Shown here: in pieces, positions 12,211 through 57,829 of the stretch
How the letters are laid out: the number at the start of each line of letters is the position of its first letter
Position numbering within the stretch: position 1 is the first letter of the stretch
Source of the DNA: a plasmid
DNA length: 64,000 nucleotides
Strand: one strand, 5' to 3'
Sequence record: NZ_CP118109.1
Position numbers and translations under genes: made by a program
The notes under the pieces: model-generated
What the model was told of the DNA's origin: nothing
Seen by the model: the letters and a program-made list of their open reading frames with translations, nothing else
The model's database searches: none

Positions 12211-12213
12211 AGG

Positions 12214-18992: not shown

Positions 18993-19359
18993 TAGGTCAT
19001 GGACATGGCATGGTATAGATGCATAGGGAGTACACGATAACGGTGGATGATCCCCTATGTAGGCTATACCCTCTACCCTACCTTATATGGTGGCATGGGT
19101 GGCAGTACTATGGTTAGCCATATTGTGCCTATGTATATGGGCATATGGGTGTGTAGGTGCACTCTATCATATACAGCCCCTGTGTAGTACGCATGGTCCG
19201 GGTCAGCCGCCCCCATGTGTAGTATGCAGGGGTCTTTTTATTTATTTACACATAGCTCCCTGTATAGGTGCCCTATATAGACCCCCCTCTATATGGACCC
19301 CCCTATATAGGGAGCTGTATGTAAGTACAGCACATTTAACCCCAAGGAGGAATCACTCT
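18993..19359. repeat. repeat-dense non-coding block: TGTGTAG-type iterons, tandem (A)CCCCCCTMTATAKG repeats, and AGCTCCC/GGGAGCT inverted repeat
   Basis: cccctgtgtagtacgcatgg (19177-19196) and ccccatgtgtagtatgcagggg (19211-19232). CCCTATATAG at 19271 and 19301, CCTCTATATGG at 19287. AGCTCCC at 19254 and GGGAGCT at 19310. Confidence 0.6.
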
Positions 19360-22300: not shown

Positions 22301-22992
22301 CTATTCGTTCCATTCGCTCTATCTATACAAACGACATCAAGAACGCTCGTCAGAAGCATGAAGAGTTCATCAAGCTTGCTGAGCTGAAATATGGTGAGGC
22401 TGATCCTGCACTGGCGATGGCTAAAGAGAAGATCGAGCGTATCTATAGAGATGATTGCGATGCGATCACCTATAAGAGTCAAATGACACTTGGCGCTTTG
22501 GAGTTCTCTTTCTCTGCGACTGATATCGGCTATGTTGCATACATGGTGACATACACTGAGAGAGGTCAAGATAACAATCGTTCGATCAGCTTCCCTTGGG
22601 TCGTGGCTAAGAAGCAATTCTTGGAGCTGTGTGCTGCTATCTCTAATCGTGAGATTGTGAAGAACCCTTATGTTGTCCCTGCATCTGATATCAAGGCAAA
22701 CTTCCGTATTGGGGCTGATTCAACTGGTCGTGTGTTTGATGGAGAGAGAATGGCACCTGTCATTGCGAATGCAGGTATGGTAACAGTGGAGTATATGTAT
22801 AACGAAGTTACTGAAAGCTACATGTATGTTGTTTATGTTCCAGTAGGCAGCAGAAATGTATATGTAGGCGACTTCTACCAAGATCAAGTTGGATTCTTGA
22901 CTGGTGCAACACGTTTCAATCTTACAGTGTCCAATGCTGAAGCTAAAGGCAGAACTATGAGTCTGACGATCTCCAGCATCGAACGCATGTAA
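19360..22992 (+). CDS. giant protein (1210 aa); candidate single-chain two-barrel RNA polymerase (YonO/QDE-1-like)
   Basis: AAGGAGG RBS plus ATG 19360. Internal FRNPAIAKGEG ...(about 45 aa)... GADNDGDETF resembles the beta-prime NRxPxLH...NADFDGD double-psi-barrel signature. Candidate beta-like K-G segment PFVKGLMVF...KSAVKGDF. Confidence 0.4.
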   Translation: MSTDSKKAMSSVPMSNKQTKTNKKEQSTMTNNKQAQINKQLAEVNRLFNKAIKGNKLEAQMSDYKSTSVVLDAIAEFPGLGVKTKNYEAITAAIASGKDIRTVMENPELTGVPKNQYRFFRAFMEEKGAEIPAMVIAPTRKRVRTVSVDLLKHSRNEAGEVVLNAEVSYQSQSQLADAFGKLVPATDSNDLHLDATHIVYIDLNIADQENQEMKDLQIEIVRNGFYYTVEGVTRKANFFIQTANQTRQLQGIYIAEDFMTIPQAFRKLGHSFLSYCKLDKATGVYTLDITKYLKRPGLSGTSSVPSKVVTFPNAHIDKLPNMRTGEYLVNSDRHSMAVIDDRFAKIKNGKFKAFYNNRVVTVSAVDGTFTATWKEGRMTKEEVLPMNYLKLGVGDGLVLASESIYWALKAEFGNDSDAWQVRITPFVKGLMVFVPGLRQYYDADIVAFKSAVKGDFRLLADSEGKIDFGIELRIARFAKRPAMKSEYVELPYQFAHVSSITAEQMIDVAQPRLDEAKSVLTNPALIQKYAGVAHLEKLNKLTLAQAEFLRDRSLVSVFANFMHYAPFTFQDAYMQTRALRLMGQQVDKWVAGTIPVEGEYRFMVQDPYALLQAVEDENGDMIVPDHVGLKPHQTFMTARDNQHFVEGPVASFRNPAIAKGEGRILNGVAPQNYVTASAKGAFNSVCVMSCHDLDTFAEGGADNDGDETFITQVRAIVNGIMGKDGQSKFLAMLDLHVDKDGEWSSGCPFPMESDEKLAFDAPCVSHDGQFKVKFTADQYNDAFIQAVHELSKEYVIRTLTPNKIGQLTNIATRLADAVRKVGYMYAENTNEFGQKTERSDAEKQELIREIARMEDMIDLIRLAQGWEIDRAKHGGAYEEALAAELEFINNPPRYAGFQESPKSKRQWIKQAWLAHHKGAEGGVDTGSVMSRVHNHMKAFVQENVIDKSEEIMNDVENNNLIHILRAEYVIDPVIYDRIANSIRSIRSIYTNDIKNARQKHEEFIKLAELKYGEADPALAMAKEKIERIYRDDCDAITYKSQMTLGALEFSFSATDIGYVAYMVTYTERGQDNNRSISFPWVVAKKQFLELCAAISNREIVKNPYVVPASDIKANFRIGADSTGRVFDGERMAPVIANAGMVTVEYMYNEVTESYMYVVYVPVGSRNVYVGDFYQDQVGFLTGATRFNLTVSNAEAKGRTMSLTISSIERM

Positions 22993-25035: not shown

Positions 25036-25296
25036 ATGGGTGCTAAGCCTATAAAGCGCCATACTCTTACTAAAGACAACGTTAAACACTTCTCGCGTAT
25101 TCAGAGGACTGGCAATGTTTTGCCTCAGCCGGCTCGTATTGTTGTCGATAAAGAATACTGGGAAGATGTTGGTGGCTGGCGAGGATGGGAAACCACTCCT
25201 ATATATGATAAAGTGTTTCATGACTGGGAATATGCATACGCTGTCTATGATGAGATCCTGCGCAGAGCGGATCCTGGTAGTGTAAAAGAGCGTTAA
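25036..25296 (+). CDS. hypothetical protein, 86 aa
   Basis: TAGGAGG RBS plus ATG. Confidence 0.5.
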   Translation: MGAKPIKRHTLTKDNVKHFSRIQRTGNVLPQPARIVVDKEYWEDVGGWRGWETTPIYDKVFHDWEYAYAVYDEILRRADPGSVKER

Positions 25297-25309
25297 TGAG
25301 GTGTATATA

Positions 25310-25549
25310 ATGGAGCTTATGTCTCCTTACTTTGAACGAACTATTATTACTGCAGATCGACTGATCCGTGGCCAATTTTATTCTTTCTATTACCAAGAAC
25401 AATATTACATTGCTGTTTTCCTTAGCTCTAGACATGAAAATCAAGTTTTAACCTTTAACGCATACACTATCGATAACAAGTATTGCAGAATATCGATGAT
25501 GTTTGCGCCAGAAGAGATAGATCGATTAAGTATTTACTATAGGGAGTGA
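25310..25549 (+). CDS. MELM-N-terminus family protein 1
   Basis: Starts MELMSPYFE behind GAGGTG. Confidence 0.45.
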   Translation: MELMSPYFERTIITADRLIRGQFYSFYYQEQYYIAVFLSSRHENQVLTFNAYTIDNKYCRISMMFAPEEIDRLSIYYRE

Positions 25550-25555
25550 TATATC

Positions 25556-25792
25556 ATGGAGCTTGTTACTCCTTACCTTAGAGCTATGTTTGAATATGCT
25601 ATAGGTGATGAATATGTATTTGTCACCTTAACTAATGATTATTATCTTGGTATGATCGCGGCTGCCACCGAAGAAGGTGTCACTCTTACATTTGCCCATG
25701 TCTCCTATGGTGGTCGTGATCACATGCTTCATGAAGTTAATTCTTGCTCTATTCCACTATCTAACATAAAGGAGTACTGGGAATGGAATTAA
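25556..25792 (+). CDS. MELM-N-terminus family protein 2
   Basis: Starts MELVTPYLRAMFEYA. Confidence 0.45.
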   Translation: MELVTPYLRAMFEYAIGDEYVFVTLTNDYYLGMIAAATEEGVTLTFAHVSYGGRDHMLHEVNSCSIPLSNIKEYWEWN

Positions 25793-26091
25793 TGAATGCT
25801 TATTTAGAGAATACCGGTCCTACCTTTTCTCCGCCAATAATGAATCGCATTACATTTCAGGATGCCGACTTCTATGTAGGTGATTTTGTACGTGTGATAC
25901 ATTATCATGACATAGATTTAGAAAACAAGACTTTATCCAGGTCCTATACAACTGGAGTTATTCAAGAGATCAACGAAGATTTACTTTCTAAATACGTTGT
26001 GATTCACGATGAAAGTACTTCTAATCAACACTATATTCGAGAGTTTGACATAGTAGGTATTATGTATCCCCCATTTTGGAGTGGACCATGA
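25783..26091 (+). CDS. MELM-N-terminus family protein 3
   Basis: Starts MELMNAYLEN. Confidence 0.45.
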   Translation: MELMNAYLENTGPTFSPPIMNRITFQDADFYVGDFVRVIHYHDIDLENKTLSRSYTTGVIQEINEDLLSKYVVIHDESTSNQHYIREFDIVGIMYPPFWSGP

Positions 26092-26318
26092 TGGAGCTAA
26101 TGTCTGCCTATAAAGAGAATACTGATAAGTATTTTAATGGTGTAGTCGATGCCTATAACTATTGCTATGGTTATGTCTCCCTCTACCCTAGTGTGTATAC
26201 TGATGATCCTCAGTATAAGCTTGGTTATGAGTATGGTGAGAAGCTATATCATAGCGATAAAGAGTTAGGTATTCTATATAGTGATGATCGCTTATTTGAA
26301 TTACATGGAGGCCTATAA
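26091..26318 (+). CDS. MELM-N-terminus family protein 4
   Basis: Starts MELMSAYKEN behind TGGAGTGG. Confidence 0.45.
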   Translation: MELMSAYKENTDKYFNGVVDAYNYCYGYVSLYPSVYTDDPQYKLGYEYGEKLYHSDKELGILYSDDRLFELHGGL

Positions 26319-26557
26319 TGATCAATCAAACTAAATTCACAGTTAATGATGTTCCGCTTAAGACTAAGAAGGAGGCTGTACGTGCTTTATGTGCCACAGC
26401 CAACTTCAATTGTTTGCATATAGAAGAATTATGGTGTTACAAAGAAGTTTGTGAATTATTTAGCATTACTCCTGATGATTATTGGAATGACGAAGCAGAG
26501 CTTGATGAAGAACATCTTATGCATGCTGGTAATGATAATTGGAAGCCTCGTATTTAA
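26318..26557 (+). CDS. hypothetical protein, 79 aa
   Basis: TAATG overlap with the previous gene. Confidence 0.45.
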   Translation: MINQTKFTVNDVPLKTKKEAVRALCATANFNCLHIEELWCYKEVCELFSITPDDYWNDEAELDEEHLMHAGNDNWKPRI

Positions 26558-28995: not shown

Positions 28996-29427
28996 ATGAT
29001 ATTGGAAATACGAAATGGGAATCCAATTATAGGACAGCGTGTTGACGTTTATGTGAATCTGAATAAGAAAGGTGTATTCAGTATTCTTGATCGTCAGCCT
29101 AAGAGTCCTACATATAATAAAGTATTGGCTTATGCAGAGCGAGTCACCATTAGGTCGGCTCGTTCTCGTATTATTCAGAGCAAATATGATTCTATTCAAG
29201 AGAAGAAACAACGAGCTGTTTGTGCTGTCTTCTCCGGAACTCTTGTTGCTATTGATTCAGACAAGTCTGCAGATCTTAATGTTCAAGTAAGATATAATCC
29301 TTACCGTTCTCGAGAATTTCATACTCTTGATGGATCCGTAATTGATCAAGCTGAGCTTATTCATTTTGAGGATCAATGCGGTTGGATTAGCACTGCCAAT
29401 CAGAATGATTCTATGCTATTGTTTTAA
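28996..29427 (+). CDS. hypothetical protein, 143 aa
   Basis: GGAGCATATG context. Confidence 0.5.
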   Translation: MILEIRNGNPIIGQRVDVYVNLNKKGVFSILDRQPKSPTYNKVLAYAERVTIRSARSRIIQSKYDSIQEKKQRAVCAVFSGTLVAIDSDKSADLNVQVRYNPYRSREFHTLDGSVIDQAELIHFEDQCGWISTANQNDSMLLF

Positions 29428-29462
29428 AGGTAAATTATTCTATTTTGAGGGGACGGATTCTT

Positions 29463-29828
29463 TTGACAGTAAGCAATTTAGATTTAGATTATTTCCTGCA
29501 TGACTTGATTGATGAATACCTAAATCATGGTCTAACTTCCCACGATGGAGCTACTGTAATAACTGTTGATCCAATTCATAAGTATTTCGAAGAAGTTGTA
29601 AATAAGCTCATTCCATTCATAGAATATGACATCATAGATCGCCTGGATTATATTGTTTTGACCAGAAAAGATAATGGTGATGATGAGATTGTTATTTTCG
29701 AGAAGCGCAATATGTTCAGAGCATTTCCAGACTCGCCTGCCAAATTTAATTATAAATTATTAAGCGTTCCAATATATCGATATGAGATATCAACAGTAAC
29801 TGTCGATATTGGCGAGATGGATGAATAG
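29463..29828 (+). CDS. hypothetical protein (start uncertain: TTG 29445 or TTG 29463)
   Basis: No in-frame ATG. GAGGGGA precedes 29463. Confidence 0.35.
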   Translation: MTVSNLDLDYFLHDLIDEYLNHGLTSHDGATVITVDPIHKYFEEVVNKLIPFIEYDIIDRLDYIVLTRKDNGDDEIVIFEKRNMFRAFPDSPAKFNYKLLSVPIYRYEISTVTVDIGEMDE

Positions 29829-29838
29829 TTTTACCTTC

Positions 29839-29866
29839 GGCTGCCACTTAGGCAGTCTTTTTTTAT
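29839..29866 (+). terminator. rho-independent terminator
   Basis: GGCTGCC-actta-GGCAGTC followed by TTTTTTT. Confidence 0.55.
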
Positions 29867-29891
29867 TTCTAATTCAAAGGAGATTTTCTAC

Positions 29892-30125
29892 ATGCAACCA
29901 CCTATTCTACACCCAGTAAACAAAGTTCTCATGATTCCAGGACGACTATACAACATCAAGGACACCAAAGAAAGAAACATTCAGGCGTCTTTTTCTAAAC
30001 GAGAAGGTGAAAACTTTCACTTTGATTATGCTATCTCTTTCGATTTAGCTTCTGGGACTACTCTTCTCATTGATCTTCTTCTTCATGAGGATGAAATTAT
30101 CTCTTGTGAGCAATATCATTTCTAG
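29892..30125 (+). CDS. hypothetical protein, 77 aa
   Basis: AAAGGAG RBS plus ATG. Confidence 0.45.
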   Translation: MQPPILHPVNKVLMIPGRLYNIKDTKERNIQASFSKREGENFHFDYAISFDLASGTTLLIDLLLHEDEIISCEQYHF

Positions 30126-30155
30126 GCTATCTAACGATAGCAAGGGCTTTATGAG
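30126..30155 (+). terminator. TAAC-loop hairpin element T5: GCTATC-TAAC-GATAGC-AAGGGC-TTTATGAG, followed by a second plain terminator hairpin 30155..30181
   Basis: Perfect 6-bp stem, TAAC loop, GGGCTTTATGA block. Then GGACTG-tctatata-CAGTCC-TTTTT. Confidence 0.5.
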
Positions 30156-30211
30156 GACTGTCTATATAGCAGTCCTTTTTCTTATTCAATCATAAACTGG
30201 AGGTTTTACCT

Positions 30212-30466
30212 ATGAAAACTAAATCACTTGCTATCGCATTCTTTATCACTCTCTGTACTACTATTGGCATTATTGCATGGCAGCCTGATCCTGCATATGT
30301 TGACTATGTTGTTGATTCTGGCGATACACTTTGGAGTATTGCTGAGCAAAGTGACATTGATACAGATAAACGTGCCATCGTCGCCTATATGATTGATAAA
30401 AGCAACTTACATAATCCAGGTGATCTTAAGCCAGGTATGATCGTTCGTATACCAATGCAAAAATAA
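30212..30466 (+). CDS. LysM-domain protein with N-terminal signal/anchor
   Basis: YVVDSGDTLWSIAEQ...LKPGMIVRIP is a LysM signature. N-terminal hydrophobic segment LAIAFFITLCTTIGIIAW. Confidence 0.7.
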   Translation: MKTKSLAIAFFITLCTTIGIIAWQPDPAYVDYVVDSGDTLWSIAEQSDIDTDKRAIVAYMIDKSNLHNPGDLKPGMIVRIPMQK

Positions 30467-30543
30467 GGGGGGCCTCTCCCCTATTCTGTCTGCGGTAATC
30501 AAACCGTACTGATGAGCTGTACTAGCAGCGAAACAGAATATGA

Positions 30544-30762
30544 TTGGAGGTTATAATCATAGATATAAACCAGACGTATAATACAATTGCTGTTATCATA
30601 TTCGAGCTGTTTCTTTTCCTATGCTTTATCATCGCTATTCCCGCTCTCAGAAATCCTAAAATCCCGCTAAAGCGCAAGTTTGAGGTTATAGGAGCAATTA
30701 TACTTATGATGTTCTTTATTTATTCGGCTTATCTAATGGAGCTATCTGAATCCGCTCAATAG
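30544..30762 (+). CDS. small membrane protein (start uncertain)
   Basis: Two hydrophobic helices. Only a TTG start at 30544. Confidence 0.3.
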   Translation: MEVIIIDINQTYNTIAVIIFELFLFLCFIIAIPALRNPKIPLKRKFEVIGAIILMMFFIYSAYLMELSESAQ

Positions 30763-30870
30763 TATTTCATATGATTTATAAGATATTTCATATGATTTAA
30801 GTCTTATATCATATGCGATAACAGTTATATCGTATGATATATTATATAATTCCTATTTCATATGATATAT
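30760..30870. repeat. array of ATTTCATATGAT / TATCATATG direct repeats (5 or more copies)
   Basis: Copies at 30765, 30785, 30855. Variants at 30806 and 30826. Palindromic CATATG core. Confidence 0.5.
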
Positions 30871-31016
30871 TAAATACTTATACGATGCGATTAGGTAATT
30901 AAGCTTGGCTCTTTCATTTATCAGGACGTGTTTTCGTACTATTGATTAGTACTATTAATATGCTTAACACAATTGTATAATTCTAGCAAACTACTAGAAG
31001 GAGGAATTATATGTAG

Positions 31017-31253
31017 ATGCCAAAAGATCCTAAGATTCAGAAGGAAATTGAAAGAATAAATAACGCCTACGATTTAATACTTGGTATGATAGGTGGCGAG
31101 CTTTATCAGCGAGGACTCGATTTTGAAATTCGCGAGTATCTTCTCGGAGTTCCTATGCTAGTTGTTTTTAATGAAGAAGGCACAGTAATAGATCGAAAGT
31201 TTGAATACGAGTTTGATGAATACTATAACGAGTTAGAATCAACCACAAATTAA
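31017..31253 (+). CDS. hypothetical protein, 78 aa
   Basis: GGAGG RBS plus ATG. Confidence 0.5.
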   Translation: MPKDPKIQKEIERINNAYDLILGMIGGELYQRGLDFEIREYLLGVPMLVVFNEEGTVIDRKFEYEFDEYYNELESTTN

Positions 31254-31303
31254 ACCTAAGCCTGTTCCTTAATGGAGCGGGCTTTTTTATTAGGAGGAAG
31301 ACT

Positions 31304-31450
31304 TATGAAAAATGTATTTATTTTCGACGATCCGGAGTTCCAGCAGATGCACTGGGATTTCGATCCGACTGGCTATGAGCAAGACATTCATACATACAAA
31401 CCATGTGGATGCATAGATGACCATTTCTGTTTAGAATGCGTCCCTTTCTA
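31304..31450 (+). CDS. small Cys-rich peptide, 48 aa (not in ORF track)
   Basis: AGGAGG RBS 6 nt upstream. Translation MKNVFIFDDPEFQQMHWDFDPTGYEQDIHTYKPCGCIDDHFCLECVPF. Confidence 0.4.
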
Positions 31451-31462
31451 AGGAGACTAATT

Positions 31463-31735
31463 ATGTTTAATTACACTAGCTTAGATGATCACATCTATTG
31501 TTTACAGCGCACCCCTCTCCCCGCCCAGCTCAGTATTGATTTAATCAGAGCTGATACATTCTATCTTCAAGATAAGGATGACGAATGCCGTCAAATCCTA
31601 GGTGAGATCGAACAAAAGTGTGCTGAACTAAACATCAAGATTTATCGTCCGATGCCGATCAGCTTTAAAGCAGCCGACTGGTATCGACAACAAGCTTTAG
31701 AAGCATATCAAACTCAAATAGATTGGAGCGAATAA
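31463..31735 (+). CDS. hypothetical protein
   Basis: TAAGGAG RBS plus ATG (MFNYTSLDD). Confidence 0.45.
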   Translation: MFNYTSLDDHIYCLQRTPLPAQLSIDLIRADTFYLQDKDDECRQILGEIEQKCAELNIKIYRPMPISFKAADWYRQQALEAYQTQIDWSE

Positions 31736-37828: not shown

Positions 37829-39703
37829 TTGATACAAGTGCGCAGCCAATACGATAACGTATATATTAAAATATTGGATAACATAGATACATTCGAATAT
37901 ACTTTGTCCAGAGTTCGATCTTTGCCTGGACGTGCGTTCAACATGGAAACTGGCGAGTGGATGATCTCCCGTGACAATGTTGGTGCTCTTTTGTTTAATT
38001 TTAACAATCAGATTATCTGGATGACCCCGCTTAACGAAATCGTTGCTGGATTAGACATCTATGACGAGATTGTACAGAAGCACTTACAATGGGAATCCGA
38101 AACAGAGTTCAAGAAATTTAAGCTGTTGCTATATCCATATCAAAAAGTGGGTGCAAACTTTCTTCTTGATCGAGGATCCGCTGCCGTTTTTGATGGTTGC
38201 GGTCTTGGCAAGACTCCGCAATTGATCGGCGCTTTTGAGAAAATTTTTGAACGTGGTGGCAAGCGCGGACTGATCGTCACACTTAATTCTCTTAAGAGGC
38301 AATGGGCTAAGGAAATTGAGAAGTTTACGGGTAAGCCAGCTATTCCAGTAACAGGCACATCCAAGCAGAGAGAGAAGCTCATACGTGGCTTCGCTTCACA
38401 TAAGAAGACACAATATTTGGTGATCAACTATGAAATCCTGCGGGATGAAAAACTTCGCAAACTTATTACTAGTATTCCTTTTGATGCCGTTGGATTAGAT
38501 GAGGCTCAAAAAATAAAGAATGGTGTAACAGATACCTTTTTGGATCTCAAGCCAAGCCAGATAGCTTCCGCCACTTATGAGCTAAAATATATTCCTCATC
38601 GGTTTATTGCTACTGCTACACCTATGCAGGGTAAAGCAGAAGAGGTGTGGAGTCTGTTCTACTTCGTTAATGAACATATACTCGGTGATTGGTATGCTTT
38701 TCGTGAAAGATACTGCGAGTATAGCAAGCGATATGGGATTACAGGCTACAAAGAGCTTGGAGAACTTTATTATCGCATTGCGCCTTACTTTATACGGAGA
38801 ACGAAAGAGAACCCAGAAGTACAACAGCAATTGCCTAAAGTTACAGATGATCCAATCTTCCTTGATATGACCGATAAGCAAGCACAACTTCATGATTATC
38901 TTCTGGATAAGTACATGGAAGTTAAAGAGACAGCTAAGAAGATTTCCTCTAGCCCGGATCAGTATCATTTTATCGCCGGCAAAAGCATGTCTAAAGAGGA
39001 GGCGAAGGAATATTACGATGCATTAGCTCAAGGCTATCAAATATTTATGCTGAGTGCTTGTGATTCTCCGCAGCTTCTTACAATGTCCGATTCATCCATG
39101 GCGCAAGGCATACTGAAGGATATCTCTTTGTCCGAGAAAGACCTTAAATCACCAAAGGTGGATCATATTGTTCAGTTCTATGAGCAAATGCTTTATGATG
39201 AGCCAAAGTCTAAGGTTGTTATATTCACTCAGTTTGCCCGTATGGCTGAGCTTATTCATAGCAAGCTCAAGCAATCGGTGGTATTCCATGGAAAGATGAA
39301 TGACAACGCGAAGGAATTTGCTAAAGAGCAATTCGTTAATAATCCGAACATTAAGGCCATTGTGTGTACCGATGCTGGAAGCACTGGACTGAATTTGCAG
39401 GTTGCCAACTATATGATTCATGCTGACTTGCCTTGGGATCCTACTTTAGTTGAGCAGCGGAATGGCCGCATTGATCGCACAGGCAATAAGTTTAGCAACA
39501 TCAACATCTATTATTTGATCATGAATAACGGATACGACGAGCATCTGCTGAATATTCTCGAGCGTAAATCATCGATGGCCAATACAGTTATTGATGGCGG
39601 CAAGTCAACCGCCTCATCAAAGAACATAAGCAAGCTTGCAATGGAAAACATGATCAAGGAAAGAAAAAAATCTTCTCAGGGTCTTGTAACTGTTGGAGGT
39701 TAG
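37829..39703 (+). CDS. SNF2-family helicase/translocase
   Basis: Motif I DGCGLGKTPQ, motif II LDEAQKIKN, motif V GSTGLNLQ, motif VI QRNGRIDRTGNK. AAGGGAGG RBS plus TTG start. Confidence 0.8.
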   Translation: MIQVRSQYDNVYIKILDNIDTFEYTLSRVRSLPGRAFNMETGEWMISRDNVGALLFNFNNQIIWMTPLNEIVAGLDIYDEIVQKHLQWESETEFKKFKLLLYPYQKVGANFLLDRGSAAVFDGCGLGKTPQLIGAFEKIFERGGKRGLIVTLNSLKRQWAKEIEKFTGKPAIPVTGTSKQREKLIRGFASHKKTQYLVINYEILRDEKLRKLITSIPFDAVGLDEAQKIKNGVTDTFLDLKPSQIASATYELKYIPHRFIATATPMQGKAEEVWSLFYFVNEHILGDWYAFRERYCEYSKRYGITGYKELGELYYRIAPYFIRRTKENPEVQQQLPKVTDDPIFLDMTDKQAQLHDYLLDKYMEVKETAKKISSSPDQYHFIAGKSMSKEEAKEYYDALAQGYQIFMLSACDSPQLLTMSDSSMAQGILKDISLSEKDLKSPKVDHIVQFYEQMLYDEPKSKVVIFTQFARMAELIHSKLKQSVVFHGKMNDNAKEFAKEQFVNNPNIKAIVCTDAGSTGLNLQVANYMIHADLPWDPTLVEQRNGRIDRTGNKFSNINIYYLIMNNGYDEHLLNILERKSSMANTVIDGGKSTASSKNISKLAMENMIKERKKSSQGLVTVGG

Positions 39704-40573: not shown

Positions 40574-40921
40574 ATGGAATTAATGACAGCCTATCATTAT
40601 CGAGACCCCGGTGAGTTTCAGGCTTCAATCAATTTGCAGAAGGCTAAAAATGGGGATTTCATTGGCTTCTGGACTACAGAAAAGGGGTTAGTTATTCGGC
40701 CTGCCAATATGACAGATAGTCATCTTTTAAATTGTATTCGCCTAACTGAAAGAAGAGTGCAGGATATTGATCTTCGCGAGCTTGCTTCTCAAATTATGAG
40801 TAAAAAATACAGGCGCAATAAAGCTAAAAATATAAGGATGGATGTTATTGCTGAATATCTTCGCAAATCCAAAACTTATTTATTGATGATTGAAGAAGCA
40901 AAAAACAGGGGGTTGATCTAA
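40574..40921 (+). CDS. MELM-N-terminus family protein (MELMTAYHY), 115 aa
   Basis: N-terminus matches the 25310-26318 family. Confidence 0.45.
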   Translation: MELMTAYHYRDPGEFQASINLQKAKNGDFIGFWTTEKGLVIRPANMTDSHLLNCIRLTERRVQDIDLRELASQIMSKKYRRNKAKNIRMDVIAEYLRKSKTYLLMIEEAKNRGLI

Positions 40922-41262
40922 TGCCTAAAGAACAATTTTTTAATTATAGTAGTGTACTAGAAATCGCATTATCTACTCAGTCAATTAATAGCAATAATAT
41001 CCAGTATCAAGAAGAAGAATTGAAAGTTGCAAATGTCATTTTTAATAACAACTCAGTATCTGATGAGCAGCTTGATAACATTAGCTTTGAAGGCATTAAA
41101 CGACTATTCGAAGAGATTAATTATACTGCCACCCTTGAAGATGGGGAGGAGTATACTCCCAATATGCTGAGAGACAGTATTTATCAACATGTATATATGC
41201 GCGAATTTATATTTGAGCTAAAAAAGATGCAGCGAGTTCGACAACCAGTAAAATTTTTTTAA
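40921..41262 (+). CDS. hypothetical protein, 113 aa
   Basis: TAATG overlap. Confidence 0.45.
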   Translation: MPKEQFFNYSSVLEIALSTQSINSNNIQYQEEELKVANVIFNNNSVSDEQLDNISFEGIKRLFEEINYTATLEDGEEYTPNMLRDSIYQHVYMREFIFELKKMQRVRQPVKFF

Positions 41263-41276: not shown

Positions 41277-41804
41277 ATGCACGAAGTTACCCCTTTGTTC
41301 GGAGCTGAAGAACGTGATTATTGGCTTAATCAATTAGATATTCTTGCACTCTTGAAAATTCGAAGGATTAATAATTTTGAAACTTCATCGGAATTTAATA
41401 ACTTAACAACTCAGCCTGGTGATGGATTAGTTCAAACATTATTTCGCCTAACTCTTCACGATCTTATATTTCCCTACGGAGCAGTATTTGGCTATTCCGA
41501 TGATGATCATGAAGATACAATTGCGAGAATCGAGTTTTATTTTCGTGAAGATTTAACAGAAACAGAATTAAAAATACTAGCTCCCATCAAAAAGAAGTTT
41601 GAAGATATTCTTGATGATATTTCAGGTTTTGATTTTGATGCCTCGTGGGAAATCGAACAAGAAGATATATTGCATATTAAATATTATTATTTTGTTGGTG
41701 TGGGGTTGGGTGCTATAAATTTTATGAACTTACTTAAAGAAATAAAGCCATATTTAACAGAAGGAGGCAATGGAAATGTCAGTCAAGATCGAGCTTCATC
41801 CTGA
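41277..41804 (+). CDS. hypothetical acidic protein, 175 aa, directly upstream of the E2-like gene
   Basis: GAGGTG RBS plus ATG. No JAB/MPN HxH motif seen. Confidence 0.45.
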   Translation: MHEVTPLFGAEERDYWLNQLDILALLKIRRINNFETSSEFNNLTTQPGDGLVQTLFRLTLHDLIFPYGAVFGYSDDDHEDTIARIEFYFREDLTETELKILAPIKKKFEDILDDISGFDFDASWEIEQEDILHIKYYYFVGVGLGAINFMNLLKEIKPYLTEGGNGNVSQDRASS

Positions 41805-42447
41805 AAAGATGCCGCTTTTAATTATTGAAGATAATGGAGTTAAAACGACGAAATATGTTTATGCGGATCAAATTATTGATATGCTTCAATCATCAACAGG
41901 AGGGAAAGAATTTACATCTGATAGAGTGGTTCTTACTTCTCCTGCGCTTCCACAAAACACAGCCAAATATGCTCAATCTGAAAAAGGAACAAACTATTTA
42001 TTTATTACAGTAGAAGAAACTACCCATGATGTTAAATATCATGATTTTAGTTTCGAATCGATACCATATCCAAAAATGGTTTTTGCTTTTGCTGTTGCTG
42101 GTAAAACACTCATATCGGCATATGTTGCAGCTTATAAAGACTTAAGCCTTAGAGACACGTCTGAGCTATACCGATTCCCTTATTCTAATGTTTACGATAG
42201 TGGAAAGCTCTGCTACTGGACTAATGAGTTGGTTCATGATCTTGTGCAGTTGCAGACATTCCCTTATCAATGGCGTGAAGTGCCTAATAATGATCATATT
42301 TATTTTTCCGGAGAAACCAACAAAATTAAAGACACCTTGTATAATGTCTTTGACATGTTTAAAAACAAGCCATTTGATTACGATATCCTAACACCAATGA
42401 ATACGACATTTGGTGATTGGTCTAGATTATTTATTAATAACAACTAG
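41770..42447 (+). CDS. E2-like ubiquitin-conjugating (UBC-fold) protein candidate
   Basis: FPYSNVYDSGKLCYWTNEL aligns to the E2 active-site block HPNIYxDGKICLDIL (Pro-Asn ... Gly-Lys-Leu-Cys). Confidence 0.55.
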   Translation: MEMSVKIELHPEKMPLLIIEDNGVKTTKYVYADQIIDMLQSSTGGKEFTSDRVVLTSPALPQNTAKYAQSEKGTNYLFITVEETTHDVKYHDFSFESIPYPKMVFAFAVAGKTLISAYVAAYKDLSLRDTSELYRFPYSNVYDSGKLCYWTNELVHDLVQLQTFPYQWREVPNNDHIYFSGETNKIKDTLYNVFDMFKNKPFDYDILTPMNTTFGDWSRLFINNN

Positions 42448-42458
42448 GAGGAATTATC

Positions 42459-42884
42459 ATGGATTTTATTCAAGAGCAAGAAAACAATGAGGAATTAGAA
42501 AAACAAAAGCAGCTCGATTATATGATGAAATCAGTGGAGCCAGAAGAACCAGAAGACGAGGCAGAAAGCAAAGACGCTAATGTTGAGTATGATCTCTTTG
42601 GTGAGCCTATTGCTGCAGCAACTCCAAAATCAAAATCTTCAAAGCCTAAAGTCAATGCTACAAAGCCATCACCGACTGATCCTGTCAAATATGATACGAA
42701 TTGGGTATGTCTCGTTTACGATAAGCGCATTCCCGTTCCAGAAGACGGATTAACATTGGAAAAAGTGCGACAGTACTTGGAAATGGAGTATCCTCAATTT
42801 TCTAAAGACCGCACTGAAATGATGATTGATAAGGAGCAGAAATATATCATTCCAAATGTAACCAAAGCACCGAAAAAGGGGTGA
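42459..42884 (+). CDS. ubiquitin-like protein candidate with terminal Gly (ends ...KAPKKG-stop)
   Basis: C-terminal roughly 75 aa has a beta-grasp-like pattern (WVCLVYDKRIPV...LTLEKVRQYL...KYIIPNV) ending in Gly. N-terminal Lys/acidic disordered half. Lies immediately 5' of the E1. Confidence 0.5.
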   Translation: MDFIQEQENNEELEKQKQLDYMMKSVEPEEPEDEAESKDANVEYDLFGEPIAAATPKSKSSKPKVNATKPSPTDPVKYDTNWVCLVYDKRIPVPEDGLTLEKVRQYLEMEYPQFSKDRTEMMIDKEQKYIIPNVTKAPKKG

Positions 42885-42891
42885 TTATATT

Positions 42892-43707
42892 ATGATCAAG
42901 GAAATCAATGTAGCTGATTCTTTATCAGGATTTTCTATTGTTCAGATTGGCGTCGGAGGTAATGGAGGATATTTAACCCAGCGTCTTTCAAAAATGCTTA
43001 AATCTTTCCTGCAGACGAATCCAGTTTTTCGCTTTACTTATACGCTTATTGATGGGGATCGATTTGAAGAGAAGAATCTCCTGCGGCAACCATGCATCGA
43101 AGAAGATATTGGTTTTGTAAAGTCTCAAGTGTTAGCTGATCGTTATGGGAATGTTTATGACTTTCCGATTCATTATAAGGATGAGTACATTGAATCTATT
43201 CAAAGTATTGAAGAAGCATTTAGCATTGGGGGTCATCGGGTAAAGATTCTTATCGGCTGTGTTGATAATCATGCAACACGCAAGATCATGCATGAATACT
43301 TTCATAGCTGCACAGGCGATATTATCTACATTGATAGTGGAATTGATCCTTACGATGAAGATGATCCAGCTTCAGGATATTCTGGACAGATTGTTTGCGG
43401 TCTTAAATTAAGCGGAAAAGTAGTGCTACAGCCGGTTGGAGATCTATATGAAGATATCTTAACAGATACGGAATCAAAGCTCCCTACAGAGTCATGCGGG
43501 GATATTGTGGCTAATCAACCGCAGCGCATGATGACAAATGAAATGGCAGCTCTCGTTATGGCTGGCTATCTAAATAACATATTAGGCTCACGCACTCTTA
43601 TCAGTCATGTAACAAATTTCAACGCAAGACTATTATCAACACGCTCTGAATATATTACTGCAGGACAATTCGCTTTAGCAGAAAATGTCCGTTTAGTTAC
43701 AGCATAA
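42892..43707 (+). CDS. E1-like ThiF/MoeB-family adenylyltransferase
   Basis: VQIGVGGNGG P-loop, LIDGDRFEEKNLLRQP (E1 D.D...NL.RQ block), DIGFVKSQV, IGCVDNHATRKIM, candidate catalytic Cys in ESCGD. Confidence 0.75.
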   Translation: MIKEINVADSLSGFSIVQIGVGGNGGYLTQRLSKMLKSFLQTNPVFRFTYTLIDGDRFEEKNLLRQPCIEEDIGFVKSQVLADRYGNVYDFPIHYKDEYIESIQSIEEAFSIGGHRVKILIGCVDNHATRKIMHEYFHSCTGDIIYIDSGIDPYDEDDPASGYSGQIVCGLKLSGKVVLQPVGDLYEDILTDTESKLPTESCGDIVANQPQRMMTNEMAALVMAGYLNNILGSRTLISHVTNFNARLLSTRSEYITAGQFALAENVRLVTA

Positions 43708-43718
43708 TACACAATAAA

Positions 43719-43760
43719 AGCCGGTGGCTCTCATTTTGAGGGCTGCCGGCTTTTTTATTT
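43719..43760. terminator. bidirectional rho-independent terminator
   Basis: AAAAGCCGGTGGCTCTC-attttga-GGGCTGCCGGC-TTTTTTATTT, imperfect 13-bp stem. Confidence 0.55.
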
Positions 43761-43791: not shown

Positions 43792-45009
43792 TTGAAGACT
43801 TTTTTCGAAGTGATGCAGATTGTCATTTTCCTTTGGTTAAGCTATTGGTTTGTCATTGGTCTATTCGGCTTCGGCAAAGCAAAGAAGTTAGCGAATCATG
43901 CGCCTGAAAACCGATTTTTGCTTCTAATTCCTGCGAATAACGAGGCGGCTGTCATATCTGACATCTTGGAAAATCTTAAGCAAATAGACTATCCTGATCA
44001 TCTATATGATATCTGCTTAATTGCTGACAACTGTCAAGACAACACAGCAGAGATAGGTAGATCCAAGGATGTAATGGTCCTTGAGCATTTTTATCTCCCA
44101 GGGGAGAAAAAAGGAAAGCCCTATGCTATTCGTTATGCGATTGAAACAGTCGATCTGAATCAGTATGATGCAATCTGTGTATTTGATGCAGACAATCTTG
44201 TTTCGAGAAATTATCTTGAACAAATGAACAATCACCTTTGTGCTGGAGAGAAAATCGTTCAATGCTACATAGACACGAAAAATCCTACAGACAACTTTGT
44301 AACGATCGCATTCGATACAAGCTTTCGTGTAATGAACAGATCATGGCAATTGGCCAAATCACGTCTTGGACTCAGTAACGTGATCGGCGGCACTGGATTC
44401 TGTGTAGAGATGAACGTATTTCGTGAAGTAGGCTGGACAGCTAAGAGCTTGACTGAAGACCTAGAATTTACAATGCAGGCTCTCCTTAGAGGCGTGAAAA
44501 CAACGTGGTGCCACCATGCTAAAGTATACGACGAGAAGCCTACTGGCTTTAAAGACAGCTGTATTCAGCGTCTTCGCTGGTCGAGAGGGCATTGGGATGT
44601 ATGCTTTAAATATACTGCCCCCCTGCTTAAAAGAGCATTCATAAAGGGAGACCTATCTGCATTTGACAGCGTTCTTTATCTGCTTAATCCAGGAAGAATT
44701 GCTGCCGCTTTTATCATGTCTTCATTTTTCTATATAGCTTTGGTTTTTGGCCACACTTTATACGATACGATTATTCCTATGTGGGTTTACACATTTATGC
44801 TTCTTTCTAATTTTATGTATATCCATATCTCATTAAAGGATGCAAAACATAAGGTGAATACCTTTAAGGCTTACTTCTATTTAAACCTAATTAGCCTATC
44901 TAATATTCCGCTTTATTTTTGGTCATTCTTGACTTTTTCTAAGAAAGTTTGGGTGACAACAAAACACACAAAGTCCTCAAGCCTTCAGCAAGTGGAGGAT
45001 CTTGTTTAA
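43792..45009 (+). CDS. membrane GT2 processive beta-glycosyltransferase (IcaA/PgaC/NodC-like, QxxRW)
   Basis: N-terminal TM, DxD (CVFDADN), QRLRWSRGHW (QxxRW), C-terminal multi-TM region. 405 aa. Confidence 0.7.
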   Translation: MKTFFEVMQIVIFLWLSYWFVIGLFGFGKAKKLANHAPENRFLLLIPANNEAAVISDILENLKQIDYPDHLYDICLIADNCQDNTAEIGRSKDVMVLEHFYLPGEKKGKPYAIRYAIETVDLNQYDAICVFDADNLVSRNYLEQMNNHLCAGEKIVQCYIDTKNPTDNFVTIAFDTSFRVMNRSWQLAKSRLGLSNVIGGTGFCVEMNVFREVGWTAKSLTEDLEFTMQALLRGVKTTWCHHAKVYDEKPTGFKDSCIQRLRWSRGHWDVCFKYTAPLLKRAFIKGDLSAFDSVLYLLNPGRIAAAFIMSSFFYIALVFGHTLYDTIIPMWVYTFMLLSNFMYIHISLKDAKHKVNTFKAYFYLNLISLSNIPLYFWSFLTFSKKVWVTTKHTKSSSLQQVEDLV

Positions 45010-46715: not shown

Positions 46716-46743
46716 GTCGCTAACGCTCCATAGGCTTTTTGAA
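46715..46743 (+). repeat. conserved junction element C: GGTCGCTAACGCTCC-ATAGGCTTTTTGAA
   Basis: Closest of the stem-less copies to the hairpin-type downstream block. Confidence 0.5.
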
Positions 46744-46779
46744 ATTATAAATTAAATTACTCTTGAGGAGGACTTTCAC

Positions 46780-47544
46780 ATGTCTAACTATCAAAATAAT
46801 GGTCAAGGTCAACAAGGAAATAACAATCAGGGGAACAGCATGCCTTCCCACGCAGAAATCGAGCTCATCGTTAATTTGGCTACTGTAAAGGATCCAAACA
46901 ATCAAAACGGCGATCGCGTACATGCTTATGCAAGAGCTGTTGGAGATTCTAAAGTTGCTAATGCAAGTGTAGCTGTTAATCACCAAGGTCAATCTGAACC
47001 GGATTATTGGAATCTTGAAGTTTGGGCGAACGGCGACCGTGACGGTAACTTTAAATTTCTGATGGAACACTGCTATAAGGGTCGCCAACTCTTCATCAAA
47101 GGTATTCCAATGCTGAAGAAAAACACAGATGGCCGTATGTTTCCGACCATCAAAGTTAGCAAAATCCAAGGTCTGGGTTCTAGCAATAACAATCAATCTG
47201 GTAATGGATCTAATCAACAACAAGGCGGCTTTGGTCAACAACAGCAACAAGGCGGAGGATTCCAGCAACAGGGTTATCAGCAACAGCCGCAACAAGGGTT
47301 TGGCCAGCAACAAGCTGGAGGCTTCCAACAGCAACAGCCTCAGCAAGGTGGGTTCCAACAGCAACCGCAACAGCCTCAACAAGGCGCTCCTGCTTGGGGT
47401 AATCAACAAGGATTTAACCAGCAACAAAATGGATTTGGTCAGCAACAACCTGCAGGATTTGGCGCCCCACAACAAGGAGGCATGCCTCAAAACCAGCCGC
47501 CACAAGGTAATTTCCAACCACCATTCGGCGCACCGCAACGCTAA
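46780..47544 (+). CDS. SSB-like OB-fold protein with long Gln/Gly-rich tail
   Basis: GAGGAGG RBS. N-terminal roughly 120 aa OB-like. Roughly 110-aa QQGGFGQQQ repeat tail. Tail ends FGAPQR rather than an acidic DDDIPF tip. Confidence 0.45.
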   Translation: MSNYQNNGQGQQGNNNQGNSMPSHAEIELIVNLATVKDPNNQNGDRVHAYARAVGDSKVANASVAVNHQGQSEPDYWNLEVWANGDRDGNFKFLMEHCYKGRQLFIKGIPMLKKNTDGRMFPTIKVSKIQGLGSSNNNQSGNGSNQQQGGFGQQQQQGGGFQQQGYQQQPQQGFGQQQAGGFQQQQPQQGGFQQQPQQPQQGAPAWGNQQGFNQQQNGFGQQQPAGFGAPQQGGMPQNQPPQGNFQPPFGAPQR

Positions 47545-56179: not shown

Positions 56180-57829
56180 ATGTCAACTGCTATTCAACAA
56201 TCATCTGTGGATCAACTTACTGTGCTTCTCAACTCCAGGCACAGAGCTATTCTTGTTAAAACTTTTGAAGAGCAACGCTTCATAGAAAATTTGCAACATA
56301 TTGCTCAGCAAAAAGGTTATGCGAACATGTATTATTGGTCAATTACTTCTGGTCTTGTAGATGGTATTACCGGGAAACCAGCCGAGGGACCAAAGGCTGA
56401 TAATCCTATGAAGCTTTTTGATATTATTGCTGAAGCCAGGGAGCAAAACATTTATGTAATTCGTGATTTTCATGATATTTGGACCAATGCTCAAGCAAAG
56501 CGTAAATTACGGGATTATCTCGAATCGAAAACTGAATTTTATAAACCAATTATCTTAACTTCTCCCGAAGCATCTATCCCACTGGAACTTGAAAAGCTTA
56601 TAACGCTAATTAACTTTGATTTACCTGATCGGGATCGTGTTAAGTTTCTGCTGGATGGCAACATCAAGTTTTTGGAGAGCAAAGACCTTCCCACACCTAA
56701 AGGTCGAGAGTATGAAGCAATTATCCATGCCTTAGTTGGCATGACCGAGCATGAGATTTCAAATATTCTGCGCAAGACAACCTCTAAACATAAGGCGATC
56801 GTCCTTGCAGAGATTGTAGCTGAAAAAGAGCAAGTTATCAGAAAGACAGGCTTGCTCGAATACATCACGAAGCTTGGCGATATGGATAATGTAGGCGCGA
56901 TGGATCGTTTTAAAGAGTGGACGGAAGATGCCTACTACGCATTCCATCCTGATGCGCAGCAGTATAATGTTGATCCGGTACGTGGTGTAGTCCTTGCTGG
57001 CGTGCCGGGTACTGGTAAATCCTTGGCGGCTAAATCTATTGCTCATCAATGGAATCTTCCGCTGCTTAAGATGAACATGTCGGACATCATGGATTCCAAA
57101 GTTGGCCAGTCCGAGAAAAATATATCTCGTGCTCTAAAACTGTCTGAACAAGTATCGCCTTGCGTTCTCTGGATGGATGAGTTTGAGAAAGGTTTGTCGG
57201 GCATGTCGAGTTCAGACAAATCAGACTCTGGTACGCTATCCCGCGTTGTTCAAGAGATTTTGACTTGGCTCTCTGAAAAAGAGAAACCGGTATTTGTTAT
57301 TGCTACTGCGAATGATATTACAAAGCTGCCACCAGAGCTTACTCGTGCGGGTCGGTTTGACGAAATTATGTTTGTTAGTCTCCCACACACGGAAGAGCGT
57401 GCCGAGATTTTGGCTATCCATCTAAAGAAACGCGGGTATTCAATCACGAACGATGACTTTGAACATCCCAGCACACTTAATAAGCTAGATATTCTTAACC
57501 TTGCCGAGAAGATGAAAGATTTCACTGGTGCCGAGATCGAACAGGCAGTCTCTGAGGCTGGTCGCCGTGCGTACGCTGCTTTTAGAAAAGGACAACGTGA
57601 GAAGCACTACATCACTGTTCCTGATCTTGAAGAACAGGCAAACAAAATTGTTCCAATAGCGAAGCGAAATCCTCAGTTGATTAATGATCTGAGAGAATGG
57701 GCTAAACATTCAGCAGTCTGTGTGTCCAGCACCGAACATGATTTTCTTCATAGCGGTGGAAAAACAGAAGAAAACAAATCTGGTTCAACATTCCGCGTCT
57801 TTGGAACAGATCTTGAATTTTCTCAATAA
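56180..57829 (+). CDS. classic-clade AAA ATPase with roughly 250-aa N-terminal domain
   Basis: Walker A GVPGTGKSLAAKSIA, Walker B VLWMDEFEKG, SRH-like ATANDITKLPPELTRAGRFDEIMFV. Confidence 0.75.
   Translation: MSTAIQQSSVDQLTVLLNSRHRAILVKTFEEQRFIENLQHIAQQKGYANMYYWSITSGLVDGITGKPAEGPKADNPMKLFDIIAEAREQNIYVIRDFHDIWTNAQAKRKLRDYLESKTEFYKPIILTSPEASIPLELEKLITLINFDLPDRDRVKFLLDGNIKFLESKDLPTPKGREYEAIIHALVGMTEHEISNILRKTTSKHKAIVLAEIVAEKEQVIRKTGLLEYITKLGDMDNVGAMDRFKEWTEDAYYAFHPDAQQYNVDPVRGVVLAGVPGTGKSLAAKSIAHQWNLPLLKMNMSDIMDSKVGQSEKNISRALKLSEQVSPCVLWMDEFEKGLSGMSSSDKSDSGTLSRVVQEILTWLSEKEKPVFVIATANDITKLPPELTRAGRFDEIMFVSLPHTEERAEILAIHLKKRGYSITNDDFEHPSTLNKLDILNLAEKMKDFTGAEIEQAVSEAGRRAYAAFRKGQREKHYITVPDLEEQANKIVPIAKRNPQLINDLREWAKHSAVCVSSTEHDFLHSGGKTEENKSGSTFRVFGTDLEFSQ

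Follow-up and report, generated by a model that had tools for sequence, protein, structure and literature searches.

Which pathway does a ubiquitin-like conjugation cassette on a phage-like replicon serve, and at what would it be directed? The locus lies in a 64,000-nucleotide stretch of sequence record NZ_CP118109.1 (the window, 64 kb), which belongs to a 214,846-bp element of Paenibacillus sp. TCA20. A first-pass annotation, made from the sequence of the window, had read three adjacent plus-strand genes as encoding an E2-like conjugating enzyme, a ubiquitin-like modifier (Ubl) with a terminal glycine and an E1-like activating enzyme, and had left open whether the cassette is kin to Bil, Bub or PRTRC systems. 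The kinship resolves to a distant relative of PRTRC (ParB-related, ThiF-related cassette; TIGR03734-03742), which we treat as the same as operon type 6d. With a probability of about 0.6, we propose that the locus is a five-gene Ubl conjugation module of this kind, situated in the replication operon of a phage-plasmid and working at the sliding clamp. Relatives' loci are labelled L001-L029, P0014, P0015 and P0018, with L001 being Bacillus phage vB_BceM_WH1 and L024 being pSCDB14.

Conjugation enzymes and modifier

All three open reading frames (ORFs) were found where the first-pass annotation had placed them, at 41770-42447, 42459-42884 and 42892-43707 on the plus strand, each preceded by a Shine-Dalgarno sequence and separated by gaps of 11 nt (E2-Ubl) and 7 nt (Ubl-E1). 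Its reading of the three products as a conjugation cassette holds as well, on the strength of family matches, conserved catalytic residues and a mature glycine end.

The E2-like conjugating enzyme (225 aa; 41770-42447, +) is predicted to be a family-D prokaryotic E2 of the operon type 6d kind, related to PRTRC protein B. A search with hidden Markov models (HMMs), the check named by the first-pass annotation, gave a match to Pfam Prok-E2_D (PF14460) above the gathering threshold (28 bits versus 25, E 2.2e-6, residues 96-162), and six of eight E2 homologues have a precomputed match to the same family. The match to NCBIfam PRTRC_B (TIGR03737) is below its cut-off (21 bits, E 1.8e-4; cut-off 131.45), and NCBI names an identical protein 'putative PRTRC system protein B'. 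These eight are all the relatives found among 5.8 billion clustered proteins. The active-site block FPYSNVYDSGKLCYW (42175-42219, +) contains the candidate catalytic Cys148 (42211-42213), and residues F136-V141, L147 and C148 are invariant in the eight homologues (41-67% identity), as are the segments FPYSNV...LC(148), QLQTFP..W and NNDH(176) at large. This block had been aligned to the E2 pattern HPN-x4-GxICL, of which the catalytic cysteine stands but the histidine does not: the position of the HPN His is taken by F136, and His176 of the invariant NNDH motif (42295-42297, +) is the downstream histidine that would stand in for it, in a part of the predicted structure that has low confidence. 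The E2s of operon type 6d have been described in these terms, with a conserved Cys but without the HPN His and with a His farther along that is absolutely conserved (Iyer et al. 2006, PMC1779556). In a profile-profile alignment (hhalign), the active-site block of the family also pairs with the one in a cyanobacterial protein named 'prokaryotic E2 ligase family D protein' (89.5% probability, E 2e-6). Against the PDB, Foldseek with the E2 model gave nothing better than E 0.5, and a sequence search with the E2 profile gave no match. The first ATG of the ORF (41770) is just 2 nt from the GGAGG sequence and the third-codon ATG (41776) is spaced by 8 nt; because of the better spacing and the agreement with the 223-aa product annotated by NCBI, 41776 is probably the right start.

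The modifier (141 aa; 42459-42884, +) is annotated merely as hypothetical (TCA2_4458), and no model in Pfam, NCBIfam or PHROGs matched it. AlphaFold predicts an N-terminal helix, a disordered stretch and then a confident strand-strand-helix-strand-strand domain (residues 83-134) with a predicted local distance difference test score (pLDDT) of 86-91, as expected by the first-pass annotation, which had asked for a structure prediction of the C-terminal half. The family profile aligns with the Prok_Ub (PF14454)/PRTRC protein C set at a probability of 84% (E 7.8e-6), over 38 columns only. As had also been claimed, this beta-grasp half (42696-42881, +) stops exactly at a glycine: it ends in K-K-G, with Gly141 at 42879-42881 followed directly by the stop codon, and K-K-G-stop is present in all close homologues. 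An HMM search of 1.84 billion representatives collected 249 clusters of the family at 50% identity (E <= 1e-3); where a single-domain representative ends at the domain, the last residue is Gly in 61 of 75 and the ending is KKG in 44 of 75. On plasmids of Alicyclobacillus sp. TC (p1), B. toyonensis, P. rhizovicinus and Lysinibacillus, the Ubl runs, right after its terminal K-G (KKG in three of the four), into a JAB/MPN domain whose HxH...S..D motif is intact. Other relatives have two to three extra residues or a separate Prok-JAB gene at this place, and the Ubls of canonical PRTRC phages extend past GxKG. Since a fusion or extension directly after K-G is the classic signature of a processing site, Gly141 is marked out as the mature reactive end of the Ubl; with the gene stopping right after this residue, a maturation protease would thus not be needed. 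DUF4314 was considered as the Ubl and rejected: it belongs to two paralogous genes inserted between Ubl and E1 in L003 (11103-11582 and 11543-11992), one of which matches PF14192 (DUF4314). The other also contains DLFGEI, a motif resembling the one at the N-terminus of the Ubl.

The E1-like adenylating enzyme (271 aa; 42892-43707, +) consists of the ThiF fold alone, with neither a rhodanese nor a ubiquitin-fold domain. ThiF is its sole Pfam match (31.5 bits, cut-off 28.1, E 1.3e-7), and the best NCBIfam match is PRTRC_ThiF (TIGR03736; 65.2 bits, E 5.4e-18, residues 14-236) at well under the curated cut-off of 144.75, which marks it as a homologue, not an equivalog, of PRTRC ThiF. The equivalog models of ThiF and MoeB give it 19-27 bits, where their cut-offs are 150-275, and a PDB sequence search gave no match. 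The E1/ThiF signatures and the later cysteine listed by the first-pass annotation recur across an alignment of ten sequences that takes in canonical PRTRC ThiF and gp216 of jumbo phage WH1: GxGGxG, D56, N62, Q66, K77, R84, D125, R130 and Cys202 are invariant and R65 is nearly so. In the nucleotide-binding loop GVGGNGG (42949-42969, +) these include G20, G22, G23 and G25; Cys202, in LPTESCGD (43495-43497, +), is the candidate thioester cysteine.

A clamp-binding-like motif in the modifier

Between its acidic N-terminal helix and the beta-grasp, the Ubl carries a clamp-binding-like motif and a disordered linker rich in Lys, Pro and Ser (residues 50-79; 42606-42695, +; pLDDT <50 at residues 55-71; six Lys in residues 49-80). 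In an alignment of close relatives, L46, F47 and G48 are the sole invariant residues of the linker region at positions 32-63, and DLFG forms the one conserved island of the disordered part (residues 32-71), the stretch between helix and beta-grasp being unconserved elsewhere. The island overlaps EYDLF (residues 43-47; 42585-42599, +), a degenerate copy of a family N-terminal motif with the consensus QLDLF. This sequence itself occurs in L015, where the motif peptide reads EDQQLDLFGDIQ; other members have QLALF (L009), QFSLF (L016), QFDLF (L003), QLSFF, QMSFF and QLNIF (P0014, P0015, P0018), ELDIF (B. toyonensis) or QSSLF (Alicyclobacillus TC). The beta-clamp-binding motif is Q-phi-x-[L/M]-[F/L], has QLDLF as its highest-affinity consensus and is typically found in disordered termini (PMC11139829).

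Among 144 Ubl representatives at <=50% identity, the strict clamp-motif pattern is present in 36 N-terminal regions, compared with 1.9 +/- 1.4 in composition-preserving shuffles (maximum 7 in 200), and a relaxed pattern in 57, compared with 7.2 +/- 2.2. The 130 sequences that have an x-x-[polar]-[LMIF]-F core yield the position-wise consensus Q-L-D-L-F-(G/D)-x-(L/F), with a median start at residue 7. In canonical cassettes, the gene just 5' of the Ubl codes for protein E or for the protein that takes its place, and this protein has a clamp-motif-like C-terminal tail: ...NNQLSLF-stop in Trichormus plasmid C, ...TAELF in Azospira, ...GLDLPI in Ralstonia phage Dina and ...AVDMY in BgVeeders33. 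When plasmids were searched by tblastn with Azospira protein E, two records were returned, others being lost to the low-complexity filter. The FtsZ C-terminal peptide and the SSB tail were considered as identities of the motif and dropped, as the pattern fits neither.

Of some eleven loci that were sampled, five have genes for the clamp or its loader, among dnaN, dnaX, holA and holB, at a distance of up to ~7 kb from the cassette: dnaN in Azospira pAZI09 and Alicyclobacillus TC p1, dnaN and dnaX in Trichormus plasmid C, dnaX with a Pol III subunit directly 3' of ThiF in Lysinibacillus pHJ.T1, and holA and dnaX in C. argentinense pRSJ17_1. The B. licheniformis SCDB14 plasmid pSCDB14 (205 kb), which is syntenic with the window, encodes its own DnaN of 446 aa, WP_080623785.1, together with Pol III alpha; a scan of viral contigs with this DnaN found just one near-identical copy. 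In the literature, we found no prior link between PRTRC or type 6d and DnaN.

The cassette has five genes

The first-pass annotation had described a cassette of three genes. Mapping with purpose-built HMMs located p113, X, E2, Ubl and E1 together in nine independent loci, with the order p113-X-E2-Ubl-E1 permuted in three of them; the real unit is thus five genes, not three. Nor is the placement of the Ubl immediately 5' of the E1, taken earlier as the classic arrangement, a conserved one: because the E1 gene sits upstream, at the front of the cassette, in three of the nine loci (L009, L015 and L016), the conserved adjacency is E2 then Ubl.

The small conserved protein p113 (40921-41262, +) is encoded directly 5' of X in all jumbo-phage-type relatives. 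Its C-terminus aligns as a conserved FF, FI or FL, and in the window and in L003, L004, L006, L010, L015 and L018 it ends in a hydrophobic dipeptide (VKFF, the ending in the window, VAFF, IKFF, VTFF, EFF, NFI and VFL), a tail that may form a second short docking motif. No significant match to p113 was found in Pfam, PHROG or PADLOC, and its NCBIfam match is weak and at chance level. X (41277-41804, +) is poorly conserved, and its gene always lies directly upstream of the E2 gene and overlaps it, by 35 nt in the window. X matches no known family, and hhalign detected no similarity between the X family and its positional counterpart in the Trichormus cassette. The idea that X is a degenerate JAB was dropped, as it has no HxH...S..D motif and no HMM match.

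No JAB/MPN gene had been seen in the flanking ORFs, and this extends to the whole 64 kb, where neither tblastn nor an HMM built from six JAB sequences detected one. The five cassette proteins and the two ORFs upstream are without a match in PHROGs, and a nucleotide search with the cassette against 50,697 phage records found none. Downstream, a strong intrinsic-terminator-like hairpin followed by a T-run (43716-43754, +) begins 9 nt past the E1 stop codon, with an 18-bp stem that includes nine G-C pairs and is followed by TTATTT. The cassette is therefore likely to close its transcription unit, with the operon ending at this hairpin.

A replication operon on a jumbo phage-plasmid

Among the genes of the window are those for a major head protein, a portal and a large terminase (284-9582, -). 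The portal is 34-40% identical to its counterparts in Moorella phage MTATph1 and in the jumbo Bacillus phages 0305phi8-36, WH1, Edson and KLEB27-3. Relatives are contigs of 198-216 kb that stand as viral in IMG/VR or were deposited as plasmids; the viral contigs of IMG/VR span 100-216 kb, and the plasmid deposits, described as non-mobilizable, 200-350 kb. Beside the head, portal and terminase genes lies a gene for a partition protein (PHROG match; 12973-14166, -), and the syntenic pSCDB14 has ParM/StbA. Since virion genes, a partition gene and plasmid-type relatives thus come together, the element is a jumbo phage-plasmid, related to Bacillus phage 0305phi8-36. The earlier description of the cassette as phage-borne is accordingly right as to the phage-like nature of the element, but 'phage-plasmid' fits better than plain 'phage'; the partition gene and the plasmid deposits support such a lifestyle for the 0305phi8-36-like group.

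A gene for a Snf2-family helicase (37829-39703, +; Pfam SNF2-rel_dom 5.6e-31, Helicase_C 1.8e-20), which also lies upstream of the cassette in L003, L004 and L006, heads a string of co-directional genes that is syntenic in relatives. The string passes through the cassette to genes for a 3D-domain protein, an SSB-like protein, RecA, a UDG-like protein and a MerR-like regulator, of which RecA and the UDG-like protein are named in the window from the syntenic loci; farther along follow a radical-SAM protein, an AAA ATPase, ThyX and a UvrD-type helicase. Judged by this gene order, the cassette sits in a replication/recombination operon that is conserved across the phage lineage.

Proposed mechanism

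By homology, the E1 would adenylate Gly141 of the Ubl and take it over as a thioester on Cys202, after which the Ubl would pass to Cys148 of the family-D E2, with His176 assisting, and be joined through an isopeptide bond to a lysine of the target protein. The N-terminal motif of the Ubl would dock on a beta clamp, either the element's own or that of the host. Two consequences can be envisaged: the motif may steer conjugation to the clamp or to clamp-bound proteins, or conjugation may give the target a portable clamp-binding tag that recruits it to the replisome. Because no JAB was found in the window, the Ubl mark may not be reversible except by a host enzyme or by a peptidase encoded in the other ~150 kb of the element. 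It is the combination of a QLDLF-type motif with a Lys-rich linker in the Ubl N-terminus that leads us to propose action at the sliding clamp.

Several observations weigh against this proposal. The window's own copy of the motif, EYDLF, has Glu for Gln and Tyr for the aliphatic Leu at position 2, and in peptide work with the E. coli clamp a Gln-to-Glu exchange made the affinity much lower (PMC11139829). The representatives behind the motif counts share ancestry and are not independent events. Linkage to dnaN is not universal: the P0015 locus has no dnaN in the surrounding 10 kb, nor do the P0018 contigs over their 6-7 kb, and tblastn with two DnaN proteins found no dnaN in the 64 kb of the window. 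The motif could instead bind another partner, for instance E1, E2, X, p113 or a JAB. No E3 or other substrate-recognition component was identified in the cassette, and the function of PRTRC 'has not been studied' (PMC13366799), there being no biochemistry for any PRTRC-type system; our literature search likewise found no experimental work on PRTRC or type 6d.

A wider generalization is more tentative. PRTRC-type cassettes as a class, including the jumbo-phage version, might be sliding-clamp-directed Ubl conjugation systems, in which the modifier or protein E docks in the DnaN cleft through a QLDLF-type motif while E1 and E2 mark the clamp or clamp-bound proteins or turn a target into a clamp client; we would put this clearly below even odds.

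Alternative explanations

The phage-like nature of the element raises the question whether the cassette serves counter-defence or host takeover, with the Ubl attached to host or virion proteins or acting as a decoy against Bil- or CBASS-type defences and with no role at the clamp. Bacterial Ubl pathways are so far known mainly from phage-bacterium conflict, and the five-repeat poly-Ubl of the same family in WH1 is annotated 'virion structural protein'. However, the cassette occupies a syntenic replication/recombination operon and not a variable accessory island, PADLOC and PHROG give no matches past weak E1 similarity, the same family is found on non-viral plasmids and integrative elements, and the conserved QLDLF-type motif would be left unexplained. 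We consider this explanation unlikely. Nothing was found, either, in support of the purposes suggested by the first-pass annotation, modification of virion proteins or countering of a host Ubl-based defence; the setting in a replication/recombination operon and the clamp-binding-like motif together point to the replisome. A defence function of the opposite sign, in which a prophage-carried system like Bil or type II CBASS Cap2 would protect the lysogen against other phages, would accord with the frequent carriage of defence genes by mobile elements and with E1 matches in PADLOC to CBASS E1-E2 models (best 2.7e-4) and to the 6A-MBL cap2_3 model. Yet these matches are weak and do not go beyond the generic ThiF fold, there is neither an effector nor a cyclase or metallo-beta-lactamase partner, the place of the cassette in a core replication operon is fixed across a lineage whose proteins are 37-67% identical, and the isolated, lytic-capable jumbo phages WH1, Edson and KLEB27-3 have the cassette, too; hence we regard such a role as improbable.

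That the cassette is an accessory for maintenance or partition, aiding inheritance of a low-copy element through binding of the Ubl motif to a partition or segregation factor, is suggested by the PRTRC family name and is the usual assumption of genome papers (PMC13366799). The element has a ParM-type partition gene, pSCDB14 has ParM and ParB/Srx, ParB_N is encoded near the cassette in L029, and most matches are on large non-mobilizable plasmids. But within or beside the cassette of the window there is no ParB gene, the partition gene is 27 kb off and on the opposite strand, the neighbours of the cassette are DNA-metabolism genes, and the motif fits the clamp consensus and not any known ParA/ParB peptide. 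With replisome and segregation being linked, this explanation moreover overlaps that of action at the clamp; as a separate account, we judge it rather less probable than counter-defence. Least probable is a sulfur carrier system, in which a ThiF/MoeB-type adenylyltransferase and a ThiS/MoaD-type carrier would serve cofactor or thionucleoside synthesis. The E1 does match ThiF/MoeB models weakly and the Ubl ends in Gly as do ThiS and MoaD, but that end is K-K-G and not G-G, an E2 with an invariant Cys is always present, and the gene string has no rhodanese domain and no gene for ThiG/ThiH, MoaE or a cysteine desulfurase. Relatives with JAB fusions and the long disordered extension at the Ubl N-terminus do not fit such a role either. 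The first-pass annotation, which had set its conjugation reading against a sulfur carrier enzyme, was right on this point: an E2 is there, and neither a rhodanese nor a ThiS/MoaD partner or cofactor gene is.

Other genes of the window and its relatives

Between the terminator of the cassette and the 3D-domain gene, the window has a gene for a membrane glycosyltransferase of family GT2 (43792-45009; EpsU/PgaC-like, Pfam 3e-22), which looks like an inserted accessory gene because it is missing at that position in L003, L004 and L006. The AAA ATPase of the same string, 12.5 kb 3' of the cassette (56180-57829; 549 aa; PF00004 3.7e-30 and AAA_lid_3, Cdc48/FtsH type) and kept in pSCDB14, raises the question whether it might act as an unfoldase for Ubl conjugates. 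At the SSB position of relatives, the window encodes a 254-aa protein with a long Gln/Gly-rich tail and no Pfam match (46780-47544, +); a 272-aa ORF opposite this gene (46720-47538, -) is probably an artefact of repetitive codons. A 1301-aa ORF at 19087-22992 has no PHROG or Pfam match, and pSCDB14 has a hypothetical protein of similar size at 10425-14204. The latter replicon further carries, at 25223-26395 and 29191-31719, genes for flagellin (hag) and a CsrA-like regulator and a gene pair for an LXG polymorphic toxin and its immunity protein, which is unusual for a phage-like replicon.

Comparison with known systems

Altogether, the comparison places the cassette as a divergent relative of PRTRC/operon type 6d, apart from Bil, Bub and CBASS. 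Operon type 6d was predicted in silico in 2006 (Iyer, Burroughs & Aravind; PMC1779556), and PRTRC cassettes in phages were noted in 2026 (PMC13366799). Shared with PRTRC are an E1 that stands alone, consists of ThiF only and has a conserved Cys, a family-D E2 whose Cys is accompanied by a downstream His instead of HPN, and a small beta-grasp Ubl that closes with (T/K)KG, as well as a clamp-motif-like peptide within the cassette, carriage on plasmids, integrative elements and phages, and frequent dnaN/dnaX neighbours. Of the hallmarks of type 6d, the cassette shows the small beta-grasp protein with a C-terminal Gly, the E2 with Cys and downstream His and the E1 without rhodanese domain. Type 6d also has a JAB protein with a JAB-N domain and an alpha-helical protein with conserved polar residues; the window is without the former, and X takes the position of the latter without similarity to the Trichormus counterpart.

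In contrast to canonical PRTRC, the E2, Ubl and E1 score far under the NCBIfam equivalog cut-offs or have no match, and the cassette lacks JAB (protein A) and ParB as well as a separate protein E or F. The order in Azospira pAZI09 is dnaN-E-C-x-x-B-A-ThiF. With tblastn, canonical PRTRC proteins A, B and E and a 339-aa protein reach just E2 and Ubl in the window, by way of closer Alicyclobacillus proteins; Azospira protein E and the upstream 339-aa protein find nothing there, and the gene string contains no ParB. The motif that canonical PRTRC puts at the C-terminus of protein E is instead borne by the ~75-residue N-terminal extension of the window's Ubl, the lineage-specific p113 and X replace the canonical accessory genes, and the Ubl is encoded in mature form.

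The comparison also takes in the large Bacillota plasmids with Ubl-JAB fusions (B. cereus group, Alicyclobacillus sp. TC p1, P. rhizovicinus and Lysinibacillus). They share the order X-E2-Ubl-E1, E1s that are 36-41% identical, an N-terminal (Q/E)xD(L/I)F motif, the Lys-rich linker and the KKG that closes the beta-grasp, but differ in that a JAB of ~200 residues is fused directly after KKG. Such a fusion implies self-processing and probably deconjugation, and the window lineage appears to have lost the JAB. The jumbo phages vB_BceM_WH1, Edson and KLEB27-3 belong to the same virion-gene lineage (portal 34-37% identical) and have E1s that are 28-30% identical and PRTRC_C-like Ubl domains. They differ from the window in a five-repeat Ubl polyprotein whose repeats end in AGTKG and have no N-terminal motif, in a 465-aa JAB and in the spread of the genes over ~6 kb. 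In WH1, the protein annotated as 'virion structural protein' (gp211; L001 775-1674) consists of five tandem PRTRC_C-like Ubl repeats and resembles a polyubiquitin precursor, as is also seen in Edson and KLEB27-3; its gene lies 2-4 kb upstream of those for the E2-like gp214, the JAB gp215 (465 aa) and the ThiF protein gp216, and poly-Ubl occurs only in the three jumbo phages with E1.

With BilABCD, Bub and type II CBASS Cap2/Cap3, the cassette would have in common that the E1 adenylates the Ubl, that E1 and E2 carry it as a thioester and that its C-terminal Gly is joined to Lys, a chemistry assigned to the cassette by homology. To our knowledge, experiments have demonstrated conjugation, and that only recently, for no other bacterial relatives than Bil, Bub and CBASS Cap2, in each case in the context of defence or stress; these pathways always have a peptidase, and we know of none with a clamp-binding motif. 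They differ from the cassette in their E2 and Ubl families and in their location in chromosomal defence or stress operons. PADLOC found nothing for the E2 or Ubl of the window and gave weak E1 matches to CBASS E1-E2 models (2.7e-4 or worse) at the level of the generic ThiF fold, and there is no peptidase or effector in the window's cassette.

As the name PRTRC protein B for the E2 indicates, the class of the cassette was already known. It is common on plasmids, integrative elements and phages, where it is usually glossed as a partition cassette; the new part is the unannotated Ubl family with its clamp-motif-like N-terminus, whose 249 clusters combine a short motif, a Lys-rich linker, a beta-grasp and sometimes a JAB. 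The version in the window is minimal, free of a peptidase within the window and equipped with a Ubl that is ready to use, and suits in vitro reconstitution. Should the clamp hypothesis be wrong, the locus would still be a clean example of a phage-borne E1/E2/Ubl set within a replication operon.

Eukaryotic ubiquitination and SUMOylation of PCNA (Rad6-Rad18, Ubc13-Mms2-Rad5, Ubc9-Siz1) may offer a functional analogy, a Ubl pathway at the sliding clamp, and the gene string of the window includes a member of the Snf2 helicase family, to which Rad5 belongs; there is no homology to the PCNA pathways beyond the fold. In eukaryotes, the clamp-binding motif sits on ligases and readers and not on the modifier, and no RING or other E3 was found in the window's cassette. 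If the proposed wiring to the clamp is true, DNA replication in bacteria and phages would be linked with Ubl signalling much as it is in eukaryotes; ubiquitination and SUMOylation of PCNA would have a counterpart in bacteria and viruses, and a widespread mobile-element cassette that has been without a function since 2006 would gain one.

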